Part shown: positions 9,330 to 26,907 of the stretch, piece by piece
Layout of the letters: each line of letters opens with the position of its first letter
Numbering within the stretch: the first letter of the stretch is position 1
IMG/VR virus record: IMGVR_UViG_2778261676_000004
Length of the DNA stretch: 26,907 nucleotides
Strand: one strand, 5' to 3'
Source of the DNA: a virus
Taxonomy: Duplodnaviria > Heunggongvirae > Uroviricota > Caudoviricetes
The notes under the pieces: model-generated
The model's input: only the letters and a program-made list of their open reading frames with translations
Told to the model about the DNA's origin: nothing
The model's database searches: none
Position numbers and translations under genes: made by a program

Positions 9330-9530
9330 CGAGATTAAAGTGCATTAGTTCAGATGCAAATTGACATTTTGTGGCACAGGGTAGAGCTAGCGTGGTTGTC
9401 CGCTTTGTGCCAGGAGCGGACGTCTAGTTCGCTGAACCACAAAAAGTCGTTTCTAGTTATATTACTGGCTCATTAGTATCTTTATGCGATAATATTTCAT
9501 ACAACCAAAATTATGATGAAGGGAGTTCAA

Positions 9531-10652
9531 ATGGCAATTACGGTCTATTCTCGTACATTCAAAAAGGAATTGGACATGGTTCAATTGTTAAACCATTACT
9601 CATCAGATAACGCACTCAATTTCAGTGATTTCAAGGAATTTGTTGCCTTTGATGCAGAGTGCCCAATTTGCAATGTAAGCGGTGCGATTGTTGTTTCAGA
9701 AGGTTATTCGAAAAGAACAAATAAGATAGTCAGCCAATCTCATTTTTCGTTTAGAACAAAAGACGGAACTGATGCACACAAAGTATTTTGCGATCATTAC
9801 AGTGGTAATGATAAGCAAATAGATTCATCAAGGGATGGTTTTATAAAATTCGGCACCTCAGGTTCTGAGATTACAAGTATAATTCGCGAGCTTGTATGTA
9901 GAGGTATTGAACATGATGAGTTCAATCAGGAAGATATTCGAAACATGCGGCAATGGTTTACAGAATTACGCCAGTCAGGCACTTTTTCTGTTAACTATAG
10001 CCCTCACATGATCAATCTAATAAGGGCCAGCATGTATTCCCGTAAGGGAGAAAGTAAATATATTGTAGATGAAGAGAGGAAAAATAAATCCTGGTTTGAT
10101 ATAAACGATGAAGTGTATCGTTCGTTAAGATTCAAATATCCATCATTGATGATCGACATGACTAATGAAAATAATTCTGTTTTCTATAATCTTGTGAATA
10201 GTACCACATTTACTAAACAAGCACATCGATTAGTAGCACGAGATCGAGGTTATCAGGTTTATGATAGAAGGTTGCTTAAAGAAAAATATGAAGCAACGAT
10301 AAGAGTTGCACAAAAAATAACCAGGCATCACGAATTTCTTTTTAGGAAAATCAGGGGTATATCCGCTGTTAAAAAAAATAACCCCCTTTTGGCTGTATCT
10401 GCCTTGCTTCTTTTTGTCTCGGACTGGAATGAAACAACTGCAATCAACAAATTCATCAAATTGTGTGGTGTAGGGAAATCTAAAAATAATGATGAGGGGA
10501 ATGTAATTGGCTTAAATCCCTTTATTCATTACGATGTCTGGAATGTTATTCATCAACTTAAGGATTTAATGGTTACACTTCCAGACTTCTCAAATCTTGA
10601 TGAAGAATTTGACAGAGAAAAATCCAGATTAATTGAACTTTATAAGCTCTAA
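9531..10652 (+). CDS. Hypothetical protein, cargo gene A (no family recognised)
   Basis: 373 aa from ATG 9531 with AAGGGAG 5 nt upstream; strongly AT-rich coding sequence against a roughly balanced phage backbone; possible metal-binding motifs ECPICN and HKVFCDHY; no Walker A or nuclease motif seen. Confidence 0.8.
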   Translation: MAITVYSRTFKKELDMVQLLNHYSSDNALNFSDFKEFVAFDAECPICNVSGAIVVSEGYSKRTNKIVSQSHFSFRTKDGTDAHKVFCDHYSGNDKQIDSSRDGFIKFGTSGSEITSIIRELVCRGIEHDEFNQEDIRNMRQWFTELRQSGTFSVNYSPHMINLIRASMYSRKGESKYIVDEERKNKSWFDINDEVYRSLRFKYPSLMIDMTNENNSVFYNLVNSTTFTKQAHRLVARDRGYQVYDRRLLKEKYEATIRVAQKITRHHEFLFRKIRGISAVKKNNPLLAVSALLLFVSDWNETTAINKFIKLCGVGKSKNNDEGNVIGLNPFIHYDVWNVIHQLKDLMVTLPDFSNLDEEFDREKSRLIELYKL

Positions 10653-11265: not shown

Positions 11266-12519
11266 ATGTCAAAAAATCTCCCGGTTTTATTAAGCTCGCC
11301 ATCAACAACTAATTTTCCTGCAACAGTTAATACTGAAATAGAATTCCTTTCGCAAGCTAGAAAGTTGTTAGATTCTGGCTTCCCTGATCATGCTCTTTTA
11401 GATATATGGAATGCATCCATTCATAATCTTAGGCGGCGAATTGAGGCTTATGGTTTAGACTTATTCCTTTCCGCAATAAAGGATGATAGTGGTCGTAAAA
11501 AATATGATAAAGATGGTGAAACAATAAACGAGAGATGGTCAGGTGTAGATGATTTAGTGCTAATAAGTGGAGCCACCAAATTAGGGGTTCTGCATAAGAA
11601 AGCTGGAAAATCATTAGAAATGATCAATTGGATGAGAAACCATGCCTCTCCAGCCCATGCAAGTGATAGTAAAGTAGAGTCTGAGGATGTGTTTGCTTTG
11701 GCTCTTATGCTCCAGAAGAATTTATTCGAATCTGATATGCCAGACCCTGGACATTCGCCATCTGGATTATTTGAACCCATAAAAAAATCTGAACTATCAA
11801 TTGAGAGCATAGACTTACTTAAAGATCAAATAAGAGCATTTAAGCAAGCTGATATAAGAATAACATTTGGATTTTTATTGGATTTAATAACTAAGGGGGA
11901 AAATCCTGCTTATGTTAATGCTAGCAAGTTGTTTGAACAAGCATGGGAAAGATCTAATGATGACCTTAAAAAAACAGCGGGGGAAAGATATCACTCATTT
12001 ATGCTGGAGCCCGAATCGGATACAAGTGAGGATAAAGGAGCAAAAATAAGAATTTTAGAGACTTTAGTAAAAGTTAATGGTGTGAAATTTATACCTGATG
12101 CTGCTAGGGCAAGTTTATACAGACATGCGGTTAAACAGCTAGCTAAAGCTAAGGATACATCTTACGGCTGGAATGATGAAGAAAGAGCAGCCAAGGCACT
12201 TATACAATTTGGACCTCATGTTCCATCTATTGCTTTTGAAGATGTATATCAAGAAATACTTACTGTTTGGGTGGGGAATTACTGGGGAAGATCTGATGCA
12301 CATTTAGTACTTCAACCATTTTTAGATGTGTTAAATAGTAATCAATTGATGGCTCTCTCACGGTTGTTCGTGGAGAATGAAAGAGCAAATTCAGAACTGG
12401 TGTCATCAAGGCCCAAAAGAAGAGCAATAGAATTACTTGAGATAATAAAAAATAATCTAACAATTCAAGCAAGCATTGATGAAATTGATAGGATCATTTC
12501 TGAAATTGATAAAATGTAA
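11266..12519 (+). CDS. Hypothetical protein, cargo gene B (no family recognised; possible HEPN-like R-x6-H motif)
   Basis: 417 aa; ATG 11266 with AGGA upstream; AT-rich; motif WMRNHASPAH (nt 11635-11658) fits the HEPN R-x(4-6)-H pattern, but this is a weak single-motif match. Confidence 0.85.
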   Translation: MSKNLPVLLSSPSTTNFPATVNTEIEFLSQARKLLDSGFPDHALLDIWNASIHNLRRRIEAYGLDLFLSAIKDDSGRKKYDKDGETINERWSGVDDLVLISGATKLGVLHKKAGKSLEMINWMRNHASPAHASDSKVESEDVFALALMLQKNLFESDMPDPGHSPSGLFEPIKKSELSIESIDLLKDQIRAFKQADIRITFGFLLDLITKGENPAYVNASKLFEQAWERSNDDLKKTAGERYHSFMLEPESDTSEDKGAKIRILETLVKVNGVKFIPDAARASLYRHAVKQLAKAKDTSYGWNDEERAAKALIQFGPHVPSIAFEDVYQEILTVWVGNYWGRSDAHLVLQPFLDVLNSNQLMALSRLFVENERANSELVSSRPKRRAIELLEIIKNNLTIQASIDEIDRIISEIDKM

Positions 12520-13152
12520 TTTATTTGCAATTAAGCCATGCTTTTTAGGTGGCTTATTTTTTTTGAATCTACTACTTATATTGATATTAGCAATGTAATT
12601 GCTAAAGTATTCCTAGCCCACTATTCATCTAAATATGGTTGTCGAAAGGCCCGCTTCTCGCTCAAAGCGGACTAGAAGGTTAGCTTGCGTCGGACTTGGC
12701 GTATTTAAAGAAGTGCTGGTGGTGACTGGTTGTTGTGTTCCATTTCTACAGAACAAAATCACAGAAACTATACCCAATAGTTGTATCTCATCAATGATGA
12801 GACAGCCTCATATTTATCAGGACTGGTGTACGTCCAATACAGGAGGTTGTCGTGCTGGTTCTCAAATGTGCGCTGGCTATTGCAGCTGTAATGGCAATTT
12901 ATTGTCTTGCTGTTGTTCTTATGGATCGCCTTTCTGATTGATTTTATATTGGCGAGGTAACGGGAGTTAAGTAGAATGGCTGCGGGTGCTTGAGGCTATC
13001 TGTCTCAGGCATGAACACCAAAGGCAGATAGAGAAAAGCCCCAGTTAACATTACGCGTCCTGCAAGACGCTTAACATTAATCTGAGGCTCAATCTATGAA
13101 CGGCAAATCTAGGTTAGCCTCTTACGTGCCGAAAGGCAAGGAGAAGCAGGCT

Positions 13153-13308
13153 ATGAAGCAGCAAAAGGCGATGTTAATCGCCCTGATCGTCATCTGTTTA
13201 ACCGTCATAGTGACGGCACTGGTAACGAGGAAAGACCTCTGCGAGGTACGAATCCGAACCGGCCAGACGGAGGTTGCTGTCTTCGTGGACTACGAATCTG
13301 AGAAGTAA
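13153..13308 (+). CDS. Hok/Gef-family membrane toxin (type I toxin-antitoxin)
   Basis: 51 aa MKQQKAMLIALIVICLTVIVTALVTRKDLCEVRIRTGQTEVAVFVDYESEK, very close to my recollection of Gef/HokC; RBS AAGGAGAAG; in-frame upstream extension from 13096; 9-bp stem-loop GGCGGGAGA/TCTCCCGCC at 13318-13339 and a T8 run at 13391-13398 downstream. Confidence 0.8.
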   Translation: MKQQKAMLIALIVICLTVIVTALVTRKDLCEVRIRTGQTEVAVFVDYESEK

Positions 13309-13534
13309 GAGTGACCAGGCGGGAGAGTAATCTCCCGCCACCTCTGATGTGTCGGCATCCTCAACGCACCCGCGCTTAACCCTCTTGGCGTTTTTTTTGC
13401 TTTCAGATAATAAATTTACCAAAATGGTTTACAAAATCATTTTTTATGGTAATTTATTAGTCATGAAGTCTTCATCACAGGTTGTGCTTCGAAAATAGGC
13501 AGCCTGTTACTTATAGCGAATCGAGGAATTAACT

Positions 13535-13894
13535 ATGGCACTCACTGAATTCGGTAAGGCCGTTAGAAAAGCGAGGATAGATACCGACTGCACATTGCTT
13601 ACGATGGCCCAAGAACTGGGAGTAACTTCAGCTTTTCTGAGCGGTTTAGAAACAGGCAGTAAGAAAATCCCCAAAAAATGGGTAAAAGAGATTCAGGCTT
13701 TTTTCCTGAAAAGAGGTTATGAGATTAATAATCTTCAGGAATTGGCTGATGTATCTAATCAGTTTGTTTCCCTTGATGGATTGTCGCAAAATCAGCAAAT
13801 GTTGGTTGCTGGTTTTGCTAAATCCCCATTAACACCAGAGCAGTTAAAGCGAATAGCAGAGTTGATGAAAAGTATTAATCATGTTGAGGGATGA
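13535..13894 (+). CDS. HTH XRE-family transcriptional regulator
   Basis: 119 aa; N-terminal HTH-like TLLTMAQELGVTSAFLSGLETG; ATG with GAGGA RBS; stop immediately before the metallopeptidase gene. Confidence 0.8.
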   Translation: MALTEFGKAVRKARIDTDCTLLTMAQELGVTSAFLSGLETGSKKIPKKWVKEIQAFFLKRGYEINNLQELADVSNQFVSLDGLSQNQQMLVAGFAKSPLTPEQLKRIAELMKSINHVEG

Positions 13895-13897
13895 TCG

Positions 13898-14380
13898 TTG
13901 GAACAATCAGCTTACACATTACGTGGAAATCGTGTTGCACCAATGAGTATTGTTGATATAACAACTCGCGCTGTTAACTATAGCGCGATCTTCGACCTTA
14001 AAACGTTGAAAAGAAAAAAGCGGTTAGACCATGCATTTGAGTTGTTGAGTGAATATGGGATAACGCTCAATATCGTTGAGGATCGTGCGTGGACTAAAGC
14101 TACATATGATTTGACATCTGGGCATTACGATCCAATTACACTTACAATTAGTGTGCCGAATCATACATTTGAGTTGGCATGTAAAGGTGATAGAGAAGCA
14201 TTATTTGTGCTCTTTCATGAAATCGGACATTTGGTGTTGGGGCATAGAGCGTTATTTCACAGTTCCAATAAACCACCTTCGCAAATTGAAGATGCTGAAT
14301 GGCAAGCAGATTTGTTTGCTGAGGTGGTTTTGCGCGAATTAGGATTTTATATGGATCAACTATCATTTGACTTTTTATAA
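13898..14380 (+). CDS. ImmA/IrrE-family zinc metallopeptidase (HEXXH)
   Basis: 160 aa; HEIGHLVLGH contains the HEXXH zinc-binding motif; apparent TTG start 4 nt after the upstream stop, alternative ATG at 13943. Confidence 0.8.
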   Translation: MEQSAYTLRGNRVAPMSIVDITTRAVNYSAIFDLKTLKRKKRLDHAFELLSEYGITLNIVEDRAWTKATYDLTSGHYDPITLTISVPNHTFELACKGDREALFVLFHEIGHLVLGHRALFHSSNKPPSQIEDAEWQADLFAEVVLRELGFYMDQLSFDFL

Positions 14381-16145: not shown

Positions 16146-16517
16146 ATGGGGATAGAATTTGTTTTGCCTTACCCGCCAACGGTGAACACCTACTGGCGAC
16201 GTCGTGGCAGCACATATTTTGTATCAAAAGCCGGTGAGCGTTATCGCCGTGATGTGGCGCTTATTGTTCGCCAGCAGCGACTGAAATTAAACCTGTCCGG
16301 AAGGCTGGCAATAAAAATTATTGCAGAGCCACCGGATAAGCGCCGCCGCGACCTGGACAATATCCTGAAGGCACCACTGGATGCGCTGACGCATGCCGGA
16401 CTACTTATAGACGACGAGCAGTTTGATGAAATCAATATTGTGCGCGGACTGCCTGTTCCTGGTGGGCGGTTGGGCGTGAAGATTTACGAAATTACAGGTG
16501 ATAACGATGGTGCGTGA
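16146..16517 (+). CDS. rusA: RusA-family Holliday junction resolvase
   Basis: 123 aa; [21 protein letters not shown] ... [26 protein letters not shown] is the RusA signature as I recall it; RBS AAGAGG. Confidence 0.9.
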
Positions 16518-16893
16518 TATTCAGCAGGTTATGGAGCGGTGGGGAGCATGGGCTGCGAACAATCACGAAGATGTGTCATGGGCGTCAATCGCTGCTGGTT
16601 TTAAAGGATTAATCCCGCCGAAAGTGAAATCACGCCCTCAGTGTTCTGATGATGATGCAATGATAATTTGTGGCTGTATGGCCCGGTTGAACAAGAAAAA
16701 TCAGGATTTGCACGATTTGTTGGTGGATTATTACGTAGGTGGAATGACTTTTATGGGGTTGGCACGAAAGCATGGGTGTTCGGATACCTGTATTGGCAAG
16801 CGCCTGCAGAAAGCGGAAGGGGTTATTGATGGCATGTTGATGATGCTTGATATCCGACTGGAGATGGACAGATACGTAGAACGAATCATGTAG
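16507..16893 (+). CDS. Late-gene antiterminator Q (QuuD-like)
   Basis: [36 protein letters not shown]...[14 protein letters not shown] closely matches my recollection of E. coli DLP12 QuuD; overlaps the rusA 3' end by 11 nt. Confidence 0.85.
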
Positions 16894-16897
16894 GAGC

Positions 16898-16927
16898 TTG
16901 ACCAGACACATTGTCCGGGGCTATATT
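16898..16927 (+). promoter_or_regulatory. Candidate late promoter (PR'-like) just downstream of Q
   Basis: TTGACC (16898-16903), 18-bp spacer, TATATT (16922-16927); followed by a structured leader and a hairpin terminator. Confidence 0.35.
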
Positions 16928-16987
16928 CCTCACGCGCCAGCAAAATCTGGCGTCGGGATTGGCGTCCCGGATGAAAAAGGCGACAAC

Positions 16988-17010
16988 AGACGCGCCAGCG
17001 TCTTTTTTAT
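16988..17010 (+). terminator. Leader terminator (tR'-like) downstream of the candidate late promoter
   Basis: AGACGC GCCA GCGTCT followed by TTTTTTAT. Confidence 0.55.
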
Positions 17011-17166
17011 TGTCGTTTGCACTGTCACATCTCAATGGTGGGCTGTGTGGGGGCGGAGCGATCCGCGCCGGTTCCTTTTTCCCGGTTACGCCAACCCTGC
17101 ACAGTTCACCACCATACTGATTGGCGTCAGCAGTGGTGATGATTCACATAGAAAAAGGATCATCCT

Positions 17167-17655
17167 ATGGCTATTCAAATCTCAGTTGAAACTCTTTCCC
17201 CGATCACCCATAACCAAATCCCTGTCATTACTACCGAGCTTTTGGCACAACTTTATGGCACCGAAACTAATAACATCAAAGTGAACTATACACGCAATGC
17301 CGAGCGTTTTGTTTGTGGGAAACACTACTTCAAATTGGAAGGGGCTGAGTTGCGGGAATTTAAGAACAAGGTTACTCAAAGTAACTTAGTTGCACCGCGT
17401 ACAAAGCACCTCATCCTCTGGACAGAACGCGGAGCAGCCCGTCACGCCAAAATGCTGGAAACCGATCAGGCGTGGGAAGTGTTCGAAAAACTGGAAGACT
17501 GTTATTTCAGCCAAAAACAACCACCAGCAGCACAAAACACCCCAACCCAAAATGATGGATGCGCATTACTGATCCACTTCGATAAACACGGTCAGGTCGA
17601 CTTCACGGAAAAACTACCCGCCGATGCGATGGTATGCACTCTGGAACGGTTTTAA
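17167..17655 (+). CDS. ORF6N-domain protein (antirepressor-like cargo)
   Basis: 162 aa; VITTELLAQLYGTETNNIKVNYTRNAERFVCGKHYFKLEGAELREFK fits the ORF6N pattern as recalled. Confidence 0.75.
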   Translation: MAIQISVETLSPITHNQIPVITTELLAQLYGTETNNIKVNYTRNAERFVCGKHYFKLEGAELREFKNKVTQSNLVAPRTKHLILWTERGAARHAKMLETDQAWEVFEKLEDCYFSQKQPPAAQNTPTQNDGCALLIHFDKHGQVDFTEKLPADAMVCTLERF

Positions 17656-20325: not shown

Positions 20326-20619
20326 TTATTGTGAGCAATATACCCGAGCTTCCAGCGGAGTATAAATGCCGAAAGTGATAAAACCGAGCAATCCATTTAC
20401 GAATGTTTGCTGGGTTTCAGTCTTAACAACTTTTTCTGCGCCACCACAAATTTTGGCTGCATCGACAGTTTTCTTCTGACCAATTCCAGAAACGAAGAAA
20501 TGATGAGTGATGGTTTCCTTCGGTGTTACTGTTGTCGGTTGGTTTTCAACAGTAAACGTCTGTTGAGCACATCCAGAGATAAGCAGGGCCAGCGTGAAAG
20601 TGAGTAGCGTTTTTTTCAT
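20326..20619 (-). CDS. bor: Bor/Iss-family outer-membrane lipoprotein
   Basis: 97 aa; MKKTLLTFTLALLISGCAQQTFTV ... ARVYCSQ nearly identical to my recollection of lambda Bor; lipobox LISGC; palindrome GTTGCCCATCGAGATGGGCAAC (20297-20318) just 3' of the stop. Confidence 0.9.
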   Translation of the reverse strand: MKKTLLTFTLALLISGCAQQTFTVENQPTTVTPKETITHHFFVSGIGQKKTVDAAKICGGAEKVVKTETQQTFVNGLLGFITFGIYTPLEARVYCSQ

Positions 20620-20843
20620 AGTGTTATTCCCGTTGTGTTTTTAAGGTTGTTGAATCGTATTTGTAGAAATTTAAACAAAACCTAAACAATGAGTTGAAAT
20701 CTCATATTTTTAATGTTTATTAAAGTATGCCAGATGTGCTGTATTTTCATTGTATTCCCGGATTAACTATGTCCTCAGTACCGACTGGTAACTCCTGTGT
20801 GGGAGTGCCGGATAGTGAGGGGGATTAAACCGGGCGATATGGT

Positions 20844-21254
20844 TTAGCGTGGAAAAAATTGTGTCGTGTTCTGAATGCTTTCGGTAAACAATAATGAGTT
20901 GTCAAAGGTATAGTAATACCTTTTGTGTTCATGGACATTTGTAACCCATCGGAAAACTCCAGCCTTAGCCAGATTTTCCCTGTATTCATGAAATGTGATT
21001 TCTCTTGATTTCAACTTATGAGAGTAAGTTTCTATAAGTCGCGTGTCTCTGCGAAATTTAACATTCACAACCTCCTCAAGTCCTTTTATTAACACTGCGT
21101 TATCATTTTTCAATACAACGTGAATATTACCTGTGGCTAAATAGTAAATGTAATGTGAGACATTGTGACGTTTTAGTTCAGAGTAAAATCGGTCACAGTT
21201 TAAATCTTTCCGCACTTGATCAAATATTTCTTTAAAAAGGGCAACCTGAGCCAT
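20844..21254 (-). CDS. YbcV-like (DUF1398-type) prophage protein
   Basis: 136 aa, the size I recall for DLP12 YbcV; lies between bor and the former packaging region as in lambdoid genomes. Confidence 0.65.
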
Positions 21255-21369: not shown

Positions 21370-23256
21370 GTGGACACGCGGCTATGCGATGCCCGCCGGG
21401 CGTTACATGAACTGATGATCGGACGTGCTGTGGTTTCCGTCAGCAAGGACGGGCGTCAGGTTCAGTATTCGCGGGCGACAATTGGTGAACTGCGTCAGTA
21501 TATTGAAGAGCTGGAAAGTGCGCTGGGTGTATGGGGGCTGAAGCTGCCGACGCTGCGCCAGCGACTGTTCCGCTGCGTGAGTATCCGTGAGAACGACGAC
21601 GGCACGTATGCCATCACCGCCGTGCAGCATGTGCCGGAAAAAGAGGCCATCGTGGATAACGGGGCGCACTTTGACGGCGAACAGAGTGGCACGGTGAATG
21701 GTGTCACGCCGCCAGCGGTGCAGCACCTGACCGCAGAAGTCACTGCAGACAGCGGGGAATATCAGGTGCTGGCGCGATGGGACACACCGAAGGTGGTGAA
21801 GGGCGTGAGCTTCCTGCTCCGTCTGACCGTAACAGCGGACGACGGCAGTGAGCGGCTGGTCAGCACGGCCCGGACGACGGAAACCACATACCGCTTCACG
21901 CAACTGGCGCTGGGGAACTACAGGCTGACAGTCCGGGCGGTAAATGCGTGGGGGCAGCAGGGCGATCCGGCGTCGGTATCGTTCCGGATTGCCGCACCGG
22001 CAGCACCGTCGAGGATTGAGCTGACGCCGGGCTATTTTCAGATAACCGCCACGCCGCATCTTGCCGTTTATGACCCGACGGTACAGTTTGAGTTCTGGTT
22101 CTCGGAAAAGCAGATTGCGGATATCAGACAGGTTGAAACCAGCGCGCGTTATCTTGGTACGGCGCTGTACTGGATAGCCGCCAGTATCAATATCAAACCG
22201 GGCCATGATTATTACTTTTATATCCGCAGTGTGAACACCGTTGGCAAATCGGCATTCGTGGAGGCCGTCGGTCGGGCGAGCGATGATGCGGAAGGTTACC
22301 TGGATTTTTTCAAAGGCAAGATAACCGAATCCCATCTCGGCAAGGAGCTGCTGGAAAAAGTCGAGCTGACGGAGGATAACGCCAGCAGACTGGAGGAGTT
22401 TTCGAAAGAGTGGAAGGACGCCAACGATAAGTGGAATGCCATGTGGGCTGTCAAAATTGAGCAGACCAAAGACGGCAAACATTATGTCGCGGGTATTGGC
22501 CTCAGCATGGAGGACACGGAGGAAGGCAAACTGAGCCAGTTTCTGGTTGCCGCCAATCGTATCGCGTTTATTGACCCGGCAAACGGGAATGAAACGCCGA
22601 TGTTTGTGGCGCAGGGCAACCAGATATTCATGAACGACGTGTTCCTGAAGCGCCTGACGGCCCCCACCATTACCAGCGGCGGCAATCCTCCGGCCTTTTC
22701 CCTGACACCGGACGGAAAGCTGACCGCTAAAAATGCGGATATCAGTGGCAGTGTGAATGCGAACTCCGGGACGCTCAGTAATGTGACGATAGCTGAAAAC
22801 TGTACGATAAACGGTACGCTGAGGGCGGAAAAAATCGTCGGGGACATTGTAAAGGCGGCGAGCGCGGCTTTTCCGCGCCAGCGTGAAAGCAGTGTGGACT
22901 GGCCGTCAGGTACCCGTACTGTCACCGTGACCGATGACCATCCTTTTGATCGCCAGATAGTGGTGCTTCCGCTGACGTTTCGCGGAAGTAAGCGTACTGT
23001 CAGCGGCAGGACAACGTATTCGATGTGTTATCTGAAAGTACTGATGAACGGTGCGGTGATTTATGATGGCGCGGCGAACGAGGCGGTACAGGTGTTCTCC
23101 CGTATTGTTGACATGCCAGCGGGTCGGGGAAACGTGATCCTGACGTTCACGCTTACGTCCACACGGCATTCGGCAGATATTCCGCCGGATACGTTTGCCA
23201 GCGATGTGCAGGTTATGGTGATTAAGAAACAGGCGCTGGGCATCAGCGTGGTCTGA
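21370..23256 (+). pseudogene. Deletion remnant: gpW-like N-terminus fused in frame to the C-terminal part of tail tip protein J
   Basis: First ~55 residues ([42 protein letters not shown]) resemble lambda gpW; the remainder matches the lambda J C-terminus ending ...[10 protein letters not shown] as recalled; ORF opens at GTG right after an in-frame TAG; no terminase, portal, capsid or tail genes anywhere in the window. Confidence 0.65.
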
Positions 23257-24001: not shown

Positions 24002-26326
24002 ATGGCAGTAAAAATTTCAGGAGTCCTGAAAGACGGCACAGGAAAACCGGTACAGAACTGCACCATTCAGCTGAAAGCCAGACGTAACAGCACCACGGTG
24101 GTGGTGAACACGGTGGGCTCAGAGAATCCGGATGAAGCCGGGCGTTACAGCATGGATGTGGAGTACGGTCAGTACAGTGTCATCCTGCAGGTTGACGGTT
24201 TTCCACCATCGCACGCCGGGACCATCACCGTGTATGAAGATTCACAACCGGGGACGCTGAATGATTTTCTCTGTGCCATGACGGAGGATGATGCCCGGCC
24301 GGAGGTGCTGCGTCGTCTTGAACTGATGGTGGAAGAGGTGGCGCGTAACGCGTCCGTGGTGGCACAGAGTACGGCAGACGCGAAGAAATCAGCCGGCGAT
24401 GCCAGTGCATCAGCTGCTCAGGTCGCGGCCCTTGTGACTGATGCAACTGACTCAGCACGCGCCGCCAGCACGTCCGCCGGACAGGCTGCATCGTCAGCTC
24501 AGGAAGCGTCCTCCGGCGCAGAAGCGGCATCAGCAAAGGCCACTGAAGCGGAAAAAAGTGCCGCAGCCGCAGAGTCCTCAAAAAACGCGGCGGCCACCAG
24601 TGCCGGTGCGGCGAAAACGTCAGAAACGAATGCTGCAGCGTCACAACAATCAGCCGCCACGTCTGCCTCCACCGCGGCCACGAAAGCGTCAGAGGCCGCC
24701 ACTTCAGCACGAGATGCGGTGGCCTCAAAAGAGGCAGCAAAATCATCAGAAACGAACGCATCATCAAGTGCCGGTCGTGCAGCTTCCTCGGCAACGGCGG
24801 CAGAAAATTCTGCCAGGGCGGCAAACACGTCCGAGACGAATGCCAGGTCATCTGAAACAGCAGCGGAACGGAGCGCCTCTGCCGCGGCAGACGCAAAAAC
24901 AGCGGCGGCGGGGAGTGCGTCAACGGCATCCACGAAGGCGACAGAGGCTGCGGGAAGTGCGGTATCAGCATCGCAGAGCAAAAGTGCGGCAGAAGCGGCG
25001 GCAATACGTGCAGAAAATTCGGCAAAACGTGCAGAAGATATAGCTTCAGCTGTCGCGCTTGAGGATGCGGACACAACGAGAAAGGGGATAGTGCAGCTCA
25101 GCAGTGCAACCAACAGCACGTCTGAAACGCTTGCTGCAACGCCAAAGGCGGTTAAGGTGGTAATGGATGAAACGAACAGAAAAGCCCCACTGGACAGTCC
25201 GGCACTGACCGGAACGCCAACAGCACCAACCGCGCTCAGGGGAACAAACAATACCCAGATTGCGAACACCGCTTTTGTACTGGCCGCGATTGCAGATGTT
25301 ATCGACGCGTCACCTGACGCACTGAATACGCTGAATGAACTGGCCGCAGCGCTCGGGAATGATCCAGATTTTGCTACCACCATGACTAACGCGCTTGCGG
25401 GTAAACAACCGAAGAATGCGACACTGACGGCGCTGGCAGGGCTTTCCACGGCGAAAAATAAATTACCGTATTTTGCGGAAAATGATGCCGCCAGCCTGAC
25501 TGAACTGACTCAGGTTGGCAGGGATATTCTGGCAAAAAATTCCGTTGCAGATGTTCTTGAATACCTTGGGGCCGGAGAGAATTCGGCCTTTCCGGCAGGT
25601 GCGCCGATCCCGTGGCCATCAGATATCGTTCCGTCTGGCTACGTCCTGATGCAGGGGCAGGCGTTTGACAAATCAGCCTACCCAAAACTTGCTGTCGCGT
25701 ATCCATCGGGTGTGCTTCCTGATATGCGAGGCTGGACAATCAAGGGGAAACCCGCCAGCGGTCGTGCTGTATTGTCTCAGGAACAGGATGGAATTAAGTC
25801 GCACACCCACAGTGCCAGTGCATCCGGTACGGATTTGGGGACGAAAACCACATCGTCGTTTGATTACGGGACGAAAACAACAGGCAGTTTCGATTACGGC
25901 ACCAAATCGACGAATAACACGGGGGCTCATGCTCACAGTCTGAGCGGTTCAACAGGGGCCGCGGGTGCTCATGCCCACACAAGTGGTTTAAGGATGAACA
26001 GTTCTGGCTGGAGTCAGTATGGAACAGCAACCATTACAGGAAGTTTATCCACAGTTAAAGGAACCAACACACAGGGTATTGCTTATTTATCGAAAACGGA
26101 CAGTCAGGGCAGCCACAGTCACTCATTGTCCGGTACAGTCGTGAGTGCCGGTGCACATGCGCATACAGTTGGTATTGGTGCGCACCAGCATCCGGTTGTT
26201 ATCGGTGCTCATGCCCATTCTTTCAGTATTGGTTCACACGGACACACCATCACCGTTAACGCTGCGGGTAACGCGGAAAACACCGTCAAAAACATTGCAT
26301 TTAACTATATTGTGAGGCTTGCATAA
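24002..26326 (+). CDS. stf: Side tail fibre protein Stf
   Basis: N-terminus [26 protein letters not shown] matches lambda Stf as recalled; long Ala/Ser-rich repeat region and Gly/His-rich C-terminal repeats (GAHAH, SHSHS). Confidence 0.9.
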
Positions 26327-26907
26327 TGGCATTCAGAATGAGTGAACAACCACGGACCATAAAAATTTATAATCTGCTGGCCGGAACTAATGAATTTATT
26401 GGTGAAGGTGACGCATATATTCCGCCTCATACCGGTCTGCCTGCAAACAGTACCGATATTGCACCGCCAGATATTCCGGCTGGCTTTGTGGCTGTTTTCA
26501 ACAGTGATGAGGCATCGTGGCATCTCGTTGAAGACCATCGGGGTAAAACCGTCTATGACGTGGCTTCCGGCGACGCGTTATTTATTTCTGAACTCGGTCC
26601 GTTACCGGAAAATTTTACCTGGTTATCGCCGGGAGGGGAATATCAGAAGTGGAACGGCACAGCCTGGGTGAAGGATACGGAAGCAGAAAAACTGTTCCGG
26701 ATCCGGGAGGCGGAAGAAACAAAAAACAACCTGATGCAGGTAGCCAGTGAGCATATTGCGCCGCTTCAGGATGCTGCAGATCTGGAAATTGCAACGGAGG
26801 AAGAAACCTCGTTGCTGGAAGCCTGGAAGAAGTATCGGGTATTGCTGAACCGTGTTGATACATCAACTGCACCTGATATTGAGTGGCCGACTTCACCTGC
26901 AGAGTAA
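26326..26907 (+). CDS. tfa: Tail fibre assembly protein Tfa
   Basis: [54 protein letters not shown] matches lambda Tfa as recalled; start overlaps the stf stop (ATAATGG); stop at 26905-26907. Confidence 0.9.

Follow-up and report, generated by a model that had tools for sequence, protein, structure and literature searches.

Evidence for a complete hok/mok/sok locus of the hokW/hokD subgroup in a defective lambdoid prophage

The region at approximately 12949..13398 of the window, the 26,907-nucleotide stretch of viral DNA analysed here, is very probably a complete hok/mok/sok type I toxin–antitoxin locus of the hokW/hokD subgroup, residing in a defective lambdoid prophage of E. coli. As read from the sequence, the locus is intact, with all elements present and neither an IS element nor a frameshift. 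A chance resemblance is excluded by far, both by the match of the Rfam family RF01794 (E = 1.7e-24) and by the predicted fold of the full-length hok RNA (minimum free energy (MFE) −161 kcal/mol, z = −5.9), which none of 100 shuffled sequences equalled. The initial annotation had placed a Hok/Gef-type toxin locus at 13096..13400; the locus does lie there, but its promoter and 112-nt leader (12949..13095) fall outside that interval. The locus is an ordinary one that has already been described, as hokW/sokW is annotated in the record of phage 933W and was tested experimentally in 2021. In RefSeq, homologous loci carry no label other than 'hokD' or 'Hok/Gef family protein', and mok, Sok, and the leader of ~170 nt are omitted. 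Where transcript ends, RNA processing, the instability of Sok, a dependence on RNase III and Hfq, or toxicity are described below, they are what would be expected from the relatives of the locus.

The Hok toxin

The hok open reading frame (ORF) (13153..13308, plus strand) consists of 51 codons, starts at an internal ATG at 13153 behind the Shine–Dalgarno (SD) sequence AAGGAG (13138..13143), and encodes the product MKQQKAMLIALIVICLTVIVTALVTRKDLCEVRIRTGQTEVAVFVDYESEK. Its initial assignment to the Hok/Gef toxins is confirmed by the Pfam family PF01848 (HOK_GEF; 81.1 bits against a cutoff of 22), whose match spans the whole profile (1–42 of 42, E = 4e-23), and the protein also matches PHROG 251 'MokW-like host killing' with 112.9 bits. 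Hok scores under the curated cut-offs of both NCBIfam models, NF007279 (Hok subfamily; 53.6 versus 73) and NF007290 (HokA equivalog; 38.8 versus 89); these models cover other Hok subgroups and do not contradict the Pfam membership, and the protein should not be named HokA.

In alignments, Hok has the same sequence as HokW of the Shiga-toxin phages 933W/Sp5 (100% identity) and is 92% identical to Tritos HokD, 80% identical to HokC/Gef, and 45% identical to R1 Hok. Across HokW, HokD, HokC, R1 Hok, and P1-like Hok, the invariant residues are C15, T17, T25-R26-K27, L29-C30-E31, R35, G37, E40-V41, F44, and Y47-E48. The conserved transmembrane and Cys features, on which the initial identification had been made to depend, are thus kept in the alignment: Hok has an N-terminal transmembrane helix with the conserved Cys and a periplasmic tail with the TRK..LCE motif. 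HokW has been reported to be toxic, to be neutralised by SokW, and to localise to the inner membrane (PMC8621323).

The Tyr47 codon (TAC followed by G) forms a putative UACG TadA editing motif (13291..13294, plus strand), recognised by its position, its codon phase, and its local fold, in which it lies within a predicted 7-nt loop, CUACGAA. If A13292 were edited, codon 47 would specify Cys in place of Tyr; the UACG motif and the editing of the equivalent Tyr have been described for hokC, hokD, and hokE (PMC12214031).

The 5′ part of the hok mRNA

A promoter-like site on the plus strand (12949..12977) comprises a −35 element, TTGGCG (12949..12954), a 17-nt spacer, and a −10 element, TAGAAT (12972..12977); the promoter scan gives a 9/12 match and predicts a start near 12984. 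The −10 element and the start region are kept in 933W, JCKP02, Tritos, mEp460, and HannyBb, and the start thus placed is also where the Rfam model begins (position 1). The full-length hok mRNA would therefore comprise ~415 nt (12984..13398, plus strand), its 5′ end being set by the promoter and the Rfam model, and its 3′ end being assumed at the T8 run.

The Rfam search that had been proposed as a check returns a match of RF01794 to the leader (12984..13158), covering the complete model (1–157 of 157) on the hok strand with 110 bits against a gathering score of 59. The model, which carries the name 'sok', is hok-sense, as verified at the K-12 and 933W loci, whose sokC and sokW annotations lie on the other strand. 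A plus-strand Sok, which the name of the matching family could suggest, was rejected on this ground, and matches of RF01794 are not to be read as the strand of the antitoxin.

The first element of the leader, the translational activator tac (12984..12995, plus strand; GGGUGCUUGAGG), is predicted to have three partners: fbi in the full-length RNA, ucb in the shortened RNA, and 13002..13012 in the nascent RNA, where a metastable 5′ hairpin forms. In silico, nascent fragments of 30–52 nt pair nucleotides 3–13 with nucleotides 19–29 (−16.9 kcal/mol). The upstream complementary box or anti-SD element, ucb (13036..13042, plus strand; AAGCCCC), is partnered by the mok SD in the closed form and by tac in the open form; in the pair lists, nucleotides 54–57 and 59 pair with 106–103 and 101 in the former, and nucleotides 53–59 pair with 8–1 in the latter. 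The open form also contains the predicted Sok-target hairpin (13084..13121, plus strand), which pairs the mok SD, GAGG (13084..13087), with dcb, AGCCUC (13116..13121), and holds the mok AUG. This hairpin appears in the folds of the shortened RNA and of the leader alone, and in the Rfam consensus structure.

The in-frame upstream extension to 13096, noted in the initial annotation as giving 70 codons in total, is present in the sequence and corresponds to mok (13096..13308, plus strand), which is preceded by the same GAGG sequence. By analogy with known systems, mok is presumably the leader ORF through which hok is translated. Five of the seven loci compared carry such an in-frame extension; 933W, Tritos, PPompW, K-12 hokC, and R1-type loci have one. 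The exact 70-aa Mok product occurs on 351 public contigs.

The 3′ part of the hok mRNA

The 9-bp stem-loop claimed at the end of hok is real, although it starts 10 nt past the stop codon and not immediately after it. It occupies 13318..13339 on the plus strand, with the arms GGCGGGAGA (13318..13326) and TCTCCCGCC (13331..13339), the loop GUAA, and a folding energy of −19.7 kcal/mol; six of its nine pairs show compensatory changes across seven hok loci. By analogy, it would be the expected hairpin that protects the 3′ end of the processed hok mRNA, a role described for the post-stop hairpin of R1 (PMC9841398).

The fold-back inhibitory element, fbi (13359..13371, plus strand; CCUCAA(C)GCACCC), is complementary to tac except for one bulged base. 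The tac/fbi duplex has an energy of −21.5 kcal/mol, and the helix is present in the full-length MFE structure. Within the hokD/W group, the sole variable base of fbi is the bulge (C/T), and R1 keeps the tac/fbi pairing with GGCGC/GCGCC instead of GGGUGC/GCACCC. For R1, the automatic duplex search chose a non-homologous site, and inspection of the sequence gave the GAAGCGCC/GGCGCUU pairing instead.

The transcript is assumed to end at a weak stem followed by a T8 run (13372..13398, plus strand), a degenerate version of the hok terminator. The stem has five pairs, including a G-U pair, and a 10-nt loop, with an energy of −4.4 kcal/mol versus −12.7 kcal/mol for the Tritos counterpart, CCCGC-TTCG-GCGGG; a terminator scan of the window called no canonical intrinsic terminator at the T8 run. 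The T8 run reported initially is thus present (13391..13398), whereas its description as a terminator is doubtful, as the preceding hairpin is degenerate. This degeneracy also leaves the 3′ end of the primary transcript uncertain, and transcription may continue into the HTH/ImmA genes downstream. The terminator hairpin is also absent after 933W hokW, which is functional.

The Sok antisense RNA

The predicted Sok RNA is encoded on the minus strand (13034..13104), comprises 71 nt, and consists of a 14-nt single-stranded 5′ tail (GCCGUUCAUAGAUU), a long hairpin, and a CUUUU tail. Its position was obtained by transferring the sokW misc_RNA annotation of 933W to the window through a gap-free alignment, and it covers the mok SD and reaches 9 nt into mok. 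The predicted fold of Sok has an energy of −30 kcal/mol, and a 96-nt minus-strand segment containing it (13030..13125) folds with z = −4.1.

The candidate sok promoter (13111..13139, minus strand) consists of a −35 element, TTGCCT (13139→13134), a 17-nt spacer, and a −10 element, TAACCT (13116→13111), which lies 7 nt upstream of the predicted Sok start at 13104. With a 7/12 consensus match, it falls under the threshold of the generic promoter scan and was not called. Its sequence is identical to that of the 933W promoter, and its geometry is kept in K-12 hokC, R1, PPompW, and 933W. In sokW, changing the −10 hexamer from TAACCT to GAGCCG (primers YO-421/422, TAGGTTAG to CCGGCTCG) destroyed the antitoxin activity (Takada et al. 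2021, PMC8621323), and the TAACCT of the window is identical to the element that was mutated. The antitoxin activity of SokW is partly dependent on RNase III and Hfq (PMC8621323). An antisense RNA had been expected on the minus strand around 13050..13160; the promoter, hairpin, and U tail argue for a Sok-like gene on that strand, but it would run from 13104 to 13034 behind a promoter at 13139→13111.

Closed and open forms of the hok mRNA

In the MFE structure of the full-length RNA, tac is closed on fbi and the mok SD is sequestered by ucb. When the RNA is cut before fbi, it refolds in silico into the tac/ucb and SD/dcb hairpins, a structure identical to the Rfam consensus. Both forms were evaluated across seven loci including R1, and the paired percentages are inflated, since the loci other than R1 are close relatives and it was the window sequence that supplied the tested structures: the closed-specific pairs are 84.3% paired versus 36–52% when slid, the open structure is 89.7% paired versus 36–46% when slid, the tac/fbi helix is 91.6% paired, its unpaired cells being the misaligned R1 row, and the tac/ucb helix is 97.9% paired. 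Nine closed-specific pairs are changed on both sides, versus 3.7 expected (0/500 shuffles), and the open structure contains 17 compensatory pairs (0/500 shuffles). The five SD/dcb pairs are invariant in the seven loci.

A mechanism can be drawn by homology with the plasmid R1 hok/sok and Sp5 hokW/sokW systems. The promoter at 12949..12977 would produce the ~415-nt hok mRNA, and the 5′ tac would be held in the metastable hairpin while transcription runs. In the finished RNA, tac (12984..12995) would pair with fbi (13359..13371) and ucb (13036..13042) would cover the mok SD, so that the closed RNA would be neither translated nor bound by Sok. Slow 3′ trimming to the 9-bp hairpin (13318..13339) would remove fbi, upon which tac would switch to ucb and the hairpin at 13084..13121 would present the mok SD and AUG. 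The 71-nt Sok would pair at this presented hairpin, and the duplex would be destroyed by RNase III; once the unstable Sok is exhausted, ribosomes would translate mok, and hok through mok. The 51-aa Hok would then enter the inner membrane and collapse the membrane potential. The scheme of hok processing and duplex cleavage is that described for R1 (PMC9841398).

Comparison with known systems

The closest characterised relative is hokW/mokW/sokW of Stx2 phage 933W/Sakai prophage Sp5 (AF125520; PMC8621323), with DNA that is 94.5% identical over 418 nt. The two loci share tac, fbi, ucb, the SD/dcb hairpin, the sok promoter, and the Sok hairpin, and Sok has 71 nt in both. They differ in Mok codons 2–5 (NGKS in the window, LNTC in 933W), a difference that, read on the antisense RNA, changes six of the first ten nucleotides of the 5′ tail of Sok (GCCGUUCAUA in the window, GUUCAGCAUG in 933W). 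As target recognition in R1 begins at this region, cross-neutralisation with SokW may be reduced. The flanks diverge upstream of the hok −10 element and past fbi, and the genomic places also differ, the window locus residing in the nin/Q region of a defective prophage and the 933W locus beyond the tail-fibre genes.

With respect to position, the locus resembles those of the hokD (relF) type (Tritos 'HokD toxin', JCKP02 'hokD', and Rac/PPompW 'hok/gef'), which occupy the same prophage position within a shared gene order of replication genes, cargo, hok, (rem or HTH/ImmA), DUF968, RusA, and Q. The E. coli JCKP02 locus is 98.1% identical, with the same HTH and ImmA neighbours and the same degenerate terminator, and Tritos has the Sok-tail allele and an upstream 29-codon ORF in common with the window. 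Canonical HokD ends in ...FTAYEPEE, whereas the window protein ends in ...FVDYESEK, like HokW. The hokD of the K-12 Qin prophage is without mok, sok, and leader (literature cited in PMC12214031), in contrast to the complete copy in the window.

Plasmid R1 hok/mok/sok has the same tac/fbi, ucb, and SD/dcb elements, an in-frame mok of ~70 codons, a Sok start just inside mok, and a post-stop hairpin, although the R1 Hok protein is only 45% identical to that of the window. The R1 type scores 87 bits against RF01794, compared with 110 bits for the window; the Sok hairpin is longer in the window, where a 16-nt insertion relative to the Rfam consensus gives 71 nt, and the replicon is a prophage instead of a conjugative plasmid. 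K-12 hokC(gef)/mokC/sokC encodes a protein with 80% identity, and its leader scores 118 bits against RF01794. The 5′ end of Sok lies 9 nt inside mok at both the K-12 hokC locus and the window locus, while SokC has 59 nt and the window Sok has 71 nt. In K-12, an IS186 element follows the post-stop hairpin of hokC and has removed fbi, whereas the window copy is uninterrupted.

The upstream segment

Just ahead of the hok −35 element lies an unannotated hydrophobic ORF of 29 codons (12852..12941), which starts with GTG behind an AGGAGG SD and ends, with its stop codon, 7 nt (8 positions) before that element. The ORF goes together with the hok promoter in four phages and in many E. coli genomes, also in cases where the more distant upstream DNA is unrelated. 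Its variable sites are distributed 3:3:5 over the three codon positions, and its 29-aa product has no family match in Pfam, NCBIfam, PHROG, or PADLOC. A TTAACT-18-TAAAAT site (12970→12941) is a candidate origin for an antisense RNA to this ORF. In the conserved segment 12651..12985, a permissive Rfam scan gave nothing credible, and folds of both strands were no better than those of shuffled sequences (z = −0.7). The PasA sRNA, suggested by a preprint noting Sok near PasA, was rejected as an identity for this segment because PasA lies between esterase and holin genes. A 100-aa ORF (12635..12937) was likewise rejected as coding, being Cys-rich, overlapping the 29-aa ORF out of frame, and not kept open in relatives, among which indels occur.

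That hok/sok and the 29-codon ORF constitute a composite unit and, separately, that the divergent Sok 5′ tail defines a distinct specificity class are both unlikely proposals. The product of the 29-codon ORF could act as another small membrane toxin or modulate Hok. If such a Sok-tail specificity class were real, it would let several hok-bearing prophages coexist without cross-neutralisation.

Prophage context and possible roles

Genes enriched in prophages include those of the hok family, and the initial placement of the locus inside a prophage is upheld by the genes around hok: integrase, exonuclease, CI-like repressor, replication initiator, DUF968/HNH, RusA, and Q, followed by holin, endolysin, and tail fibre. 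The hok locus lies in the cargo region that separates the replication genes from the Q antiterminator, and two neighbouring cargo ORFs (417 aa and 379 aa) have no defence-system match in PADLOC. Directly behind the lysis genes come Bor, DUF1398, and an ORF in which gpW-N is fused to J-C (gpW-N::J-C). The window prophage has no terminase, portal, capsid, or tail-shaft genes, although a related prophage has its terminase at that position; the element is probably unable to release progeny on its own.

Of the whole explanation, the biological role carries the least certainty. As the prophage is without terminase, head, and tail-shaft genes, the locus most likely serves either to stabilise the element through addiction or to kill the cell once host transcription has been shut down, as an infecting phage might do; an aid to the release of its own progeny is less likely. 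The latter would correspond to an active module with the role shown for Sp5, in which SOS induction would eliminate Sok and let Hok act before holin and endolysin, for faster lysis and more phage release. The toxin is identical and Sok nearly identical to those of Sp5, where deletion of hokW-sokW halved the phage yield and delayed growth arrest by ~40 min (PMC8621323), and the window prophage retains the CI-like repressor, Q, holin, and endolysin. The missing structural genes, which make release of its own progeny improbable, and the location in the nin/Q region, in place of the 933W position beyond the tail-fibre genes, nevertheless render this role rather unlikely.

It is distinctly unlikely that the locus is a silent relic, intact in sequence yet inactive, like the chromosomal hok loci of K-12, through its degenerate terminator or weak promoters. 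The terminator hairpin is indeed degraded relative to Tritos, PPompW, and Rac, the prophage itself has decayed, and chromosomal hokA, hokB, and hokC showed no killing in earlier tests, the K-12 copies being inactivated (bioRxiv 10.1101/2025.08.07.668861; PMC12214031); failure of chromosomal hok loci at post-segregational killing in past tests is stated in the same preprint (bioRxiv 10.1101/2025.08.07.668861). However, the regulatory elements and both ORFs are intact, with no IS insertion of the kind found at K-12 hokC, the protein equals the toxic HokW, and the sok promoter equals the functional sokW promoter. 933W hokW likewise works without a terminator hairpin, and the same allele, including the degenerate terminator, occurs at 97–98% identity in several unrelated E. 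coli genomes. It is scarcely credible that only the Hok ORF matters, with no working antisense regulator, as for hokD (relF) of K-12 Qin, and that the Rfam 'sok' match is a naming artefact. Although RefSeq gives homologous loci no Sok or Mok, and the Rfam match lies on the hok strand, RF01794 matches that strand even where sokC and sokW are annotated opposite, and the full leader, mok, sok promoter, and Sok hairpin with its U tail are present and co-linear with the annotated sokW.

Significance

A complete hok/mok/sok locus with a most likely role in addiction or cell killing is of little weight as a discovery, and its value lies in annotation. The exact Hok and Mok proteins occur on hundreds of public contigs under Hok-family names, and the element map of the locus is transferable to thousands of E. 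coli prophage copies.

Hok and Mok proteins

The reading of the initial annotation, a Hok/Gef-type type I toxin locus inside the prophage, is supported, and the evidence argues for a complete, apparently intact hok/mok/sok module. The toxin gene hok (13153..13308, + strand) starts at an internal ATG at 13153 within the 70-codon mok ORF (13096..13308, +), which is the in-frame extension previously described from 13096, and encodes a 51-aa product. Its proposed membership of the Hok/Gef family is borne out by matches to Pfam HOK_GEF (81 bits, cutoff 22, whole profile covered) and to PHROG 251, “MokW-like host killing” (113 bits), and on alignment every family-invariant residue is kept, both cysteines included. 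The protein is identical to HokW (100%), the toxin of Stx2 phage 933W and Sakai prophage Sp5, and shares 92% identity with HokD of phage Tritos, 80% with K-12 HokC/Gef, and 45% with Hok of plasmid R1. Under Hok-family names, the exact Hok sequence occurs in at least 999 public contigs and the exact 70-aa Mok sequence in 351, while the locus DNA matches 110 phage records and 4,941 of 5,426 complete E. coli genomes (median of 2 places per genome; top identity, 98.1%). The hok/mok/sok subgroup to which the locus belongs is already known, having been both annotated and experimentally characterized.

The Tyr47 codon TAC is followed by G (13291..13294, +), forming UACG, the TadA motif (PMC12214031), in a predicted CUACGAA loop. 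Low to moderate editing of the equivalent Tyr to Cys has been reported for hokC, hokD, and hokE (PMC12214031), and the editing site is thus conserved in this hok gene.

The hok promoter and mRNA leader

The search for hok/sok RNA elements suggested in the initial annotation, an Rfam scan of the whole window at the gathering threshold, returned a match over the whole RF01794 model (“sok antitoxin”) at 12984..13158 (+), with 110 bits against a gathering score of 59. The orientation of this family was examined at two loci with an annotated Sok: RF01794 matches the hokC/mokC strand in K-12 and the hokW strand in 933W, with sokC and sokW annotated on the opposite strands, and it therefore models the hok mRNA leader. 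Judged from the sequence, the match in the window would cover the first 175 nt of hok mRNA; strand calls made from RF01794 would mislabel the antitoxin, despite the name of the family. A sigma-70-like site, TTGGCG-17-TAGAAT (12949..12977, +), would place the start of hok transcription at ~12984, exactly position 1 of the RF01794 model, and the locus thus begins ~150 nt upstream of the interval first assigned to it (13096-13400).

The Sok antisense RNA

In the 933W record, sokW is annotated as an RNA of 71 nt on the minus strand, with its 5′ end 9 nt into mokW, and because the alignment of the window with 933W is gap-free across sokW, the predicted Sok RNA is 13104->13034 (−, 71 nt). Relative to these coordinates, the span of 13050..13160 first guessed for Sok on this strand sits too far to the right, although it overlaps both the gene and the promoter. 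The predicted RNA (−30 kcal/mol) starts with an unstructured 5′ tail of 14 nt (GCCGUUCAUAGAUU), continues into a long hairpin, and finishes with CUUUU. Its −10 hexamer, TAACCT (13116->13111, −), lies 7 nt upstream of the Sok start, and its −35, TTGCCT (13139->13134, −), 17 nt further upstream. The same geometry recurs in K-12 sokC, whose annotated 5′ end is 9 nt inside mokC, in R1 (TTGCGC-17-TATCCT), and in PPompW; the sokW promoter is identical at every base. Takada et al. destroyed the sokW hexamer TAACCT with primers YO-421/422 (TAGGTTAG to CCGGCTCG), which unleashed HokW toxicity that SokW in trans partly reversed (PMC8621323).

Folding and 3′ end of hok mRNA

The RNA from 12984 to 13398 folds with a minimum free energy (MFE) of −161 kcal/mol (z = −5.9; 0 of 100 shuffles as good). 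In the full-length MFE structure, the translational activator element tac, the first 12 nt of the mRNA (GGGUGCUUGAGG, 12984..12995, +), pairs with the fold-back inhibitory element fbi (CCUCAA-C-GCACCC, one bulge; 13359..13371, +), and the upstream complementary element ucb (AAGCCCC, 13036..13042, +) pairs with the mok Shine-Dalgarno sequence GAGG (13084..13087, +). Removal of the 3′ end upstream of fbi switches the MFE structure: tac and ucb form a 5′ hairpin, and the mok Shine-Dalgarno sequence pairs with the downstream complementary element dcb (AGCCUC, 13116..13121, +) in a hairpin displaying the mok AUG, a fold that equals the Rfam consensus structure of RF01794. In nascent fragments of 30-52 nt, tac lies in a local hairpin (nt 3-13 with 19-29; −16.9 kcal/mol). 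Metastable, closed (full-length), and open (truncated) conformations have been described for R1 hok mRNA (PMC9841398), and the window RNA is predicted to fold into the same three states.

Comparative support came from an alignment of seven loci (the window, 933W, Tritos, a P1-like IncY plasmid, PPompW, Rac, and an R1-type IncFII hok). Pairing stands at 84.3% for the closed-specific pairs (36-52% with slid partners) and at 89.7% for the open structure (36-46% with slid partners), percentages to be read with six of the seven sequences being near relatives and the tested structures being derived from the window sequence. Changes on both sides affect 9 closed-specific pairs (3.7 expected; 0 of 500 shuffles), and the open structure holds 17 compensatory pairs (0 of 500 shuffles). 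Within the hokD/W group the predicted bulge is the sole variable base of fbi; the tac/fbi pairing, GGGUGC/GCACCC in this group, is kept in R1 as GGCGC/GCGCC.

The 9-bp stem-loop earlier reported immediately after the stop codon is present (13318..13326/13331..13339, +; GUAA loop; −19.7 kcal/mol), but begins 10 nt past the stop, and 6 of its 9 pairs show compensatory change among the seven loci. The T8 run proposed as a terminator likewise exists (13391..13398, +), but the hairpin preceding it is weak (−4.4 kcal/mol, 10-nt loop), and the terminator scan called no terminator there. Relatives such as Tritos have a clean CCCGC-TTCG-GCGGG-T5 terminator at the same position (−12.7 kcal/mol), whereas the window version is degraded, as it also is in JCKP02, the closest E. 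coli relative. The AT-rich stretch separating hok from the following HTH gene holds a minus-strand consensus match to a promoter, TTGTAA-16-TATTAT (13434->13407), which is directed back toward fbi and the hok 3′ UTR.

Differences from hokW

At codons 2-5, Mok reads NGKS in the window and LNTC in 933W; on the other strand, the first 10 nt of Sok consequently differ from SokW at 6 positions. Recognition begins at the Sok 5′ tail in R1; since this tail differs, reduced cross-talk of the window Sok with SokW is plausible by analogy. Homology to 933W breaks off a little upstream of the hok −10 and shortly past fbi, which marks the module as a recombination cassette. The module lies beyond the tail-fibre genes in 933W; in the window its place is between the replication genes and DUF968-RusA-Q, a position shared with Tritos, JCKP02, Rac, and Qin-like prophages.

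A small ORF upstream of hok

An unannotated 29-codon ORF with a GTG start (12852..12941, +), preceded by an AGGAGG Shine-Dalgarno sequence (~12840..12845, +), encodes a one-helix hydrophobic peptide, MLVLKCALAIAAVMAIYCLAVVLMDRLSD, and the hok −35 follows the end of its stop codon at a distance of 7 nt (8 positions). Tritos, Evi, mEp460, HannyBb, and many E. coli genomes all carry the ORF intact, always directly upstream of hok, and in HannyBb it survives beside unrelated DNA further upstream. The 335 nt around it occur in ~1,775 E. coli genomes, none annotated there; the exact peptide is present in 146 contigs, and a single call of it exists, as “hypothetical protein”. The residue replacements (A/T/V, V/I, R/H) are conservative, variable sites fall 3:3:5 by codon position, the coding signal is weak, and no family match was found in Pfam, NCBIfam, PHROG, or PADLOC. 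The ORF product may be a further small membrane peptide or toxin. From a minus-strand promoter-like sequence, TTAACT-18-TAAAAT (12970->12941), antisense transcription would run into the 3′ end of the ORF. A perfect palindrome with 8-bp arms, TCTCATCA-A-TGATGAGA (12786..12802), is unique to the window; relatives carry TTGAATCACTGACGAGA at this position, where TTGAAT-17-CATATT resembles a promoter for the ORF, and because the palindrome replaces TTGAATCACTGACGAGA, the window copy may have lost the −35 of this putative promoter.

Prophage context and possible role

The window opens with integrase and excisionase, exonuclease, CI-like repressor, and replication initiator genes, followed by two cargo genes, hok, an HTH and ImmA/IrrE pair, DUF968/HNH, RusA, and Q; after Q come an ORF6N protein, an AraC-type regulator, holin, endolysin, Bor, and DUF1398, and the window ends with a gpW-N/J-C ORF, tail fibre, and tail fibre assembly genes. 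The cargo ORFs (9513..10652, 379 aa; 11266..12519, 417 aa; both +) match only phrog_12525 and phrog_27609, both of unknown function, with no Pfam, NCBIfam, or PADLOC match; relatives have other genes there, such as one for an FRG-domain protein. Immediately downstream of hok lie genes for a 119-aa XRE-type HTH protein (13535..13894, +) and a 160-aa ImmA/IrrE-type HEXXH metallopeptidase (13898..14380, +). JCKP02 has the same pair, Tritos a longer one, and other relatives rem, and the slot adjoining hok appears exchangeable. Right after the Q antiterminator gene (16498..16893), and before the ORF6N-domain gene (17167..17655), Rfam matches to c4-a1b1 (16921..16973), isrK (16934..17008), and C4 antisense RNA (17031..17116; all +) form a cluster at the late-gene switch that resembles an RNA-controlled module, either P1/P7 immI-like or Gifsy IsrK-like. 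A full-length match to the IS009 “sRNA” family (26669..26867, +; 225 bits) overlaps coding sequence, falling within the gene for tail fibre assembly (26326..26907, +; Caudo_TAP).

The fusion ORF (21370..23256, +) joins the N-terminus of the head-tail joining protein gpW (aa 4-54) to the C-terminal half of tail-tip protein J, comprising its C-terminal Ig and receptor-binding domains, and is directly preceded by Bor and DUF1398 (20326..21254, −). A related prophage carries the small and large terminase subunits between DUF1398 and gpW, whereas the window prophage lacks terminase, portal, capsid, and tail-shaft genes and is therefore defective. The hokW/sokW locus of Sp5 speeds lysis and doubles phage release on induction (PMC8621323). 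Because the window prophage is defective, such a lysis function is the less likely one to have been selected here, and stabilization of the element, or killing once transcription is shut off, is the more likely role of the module.
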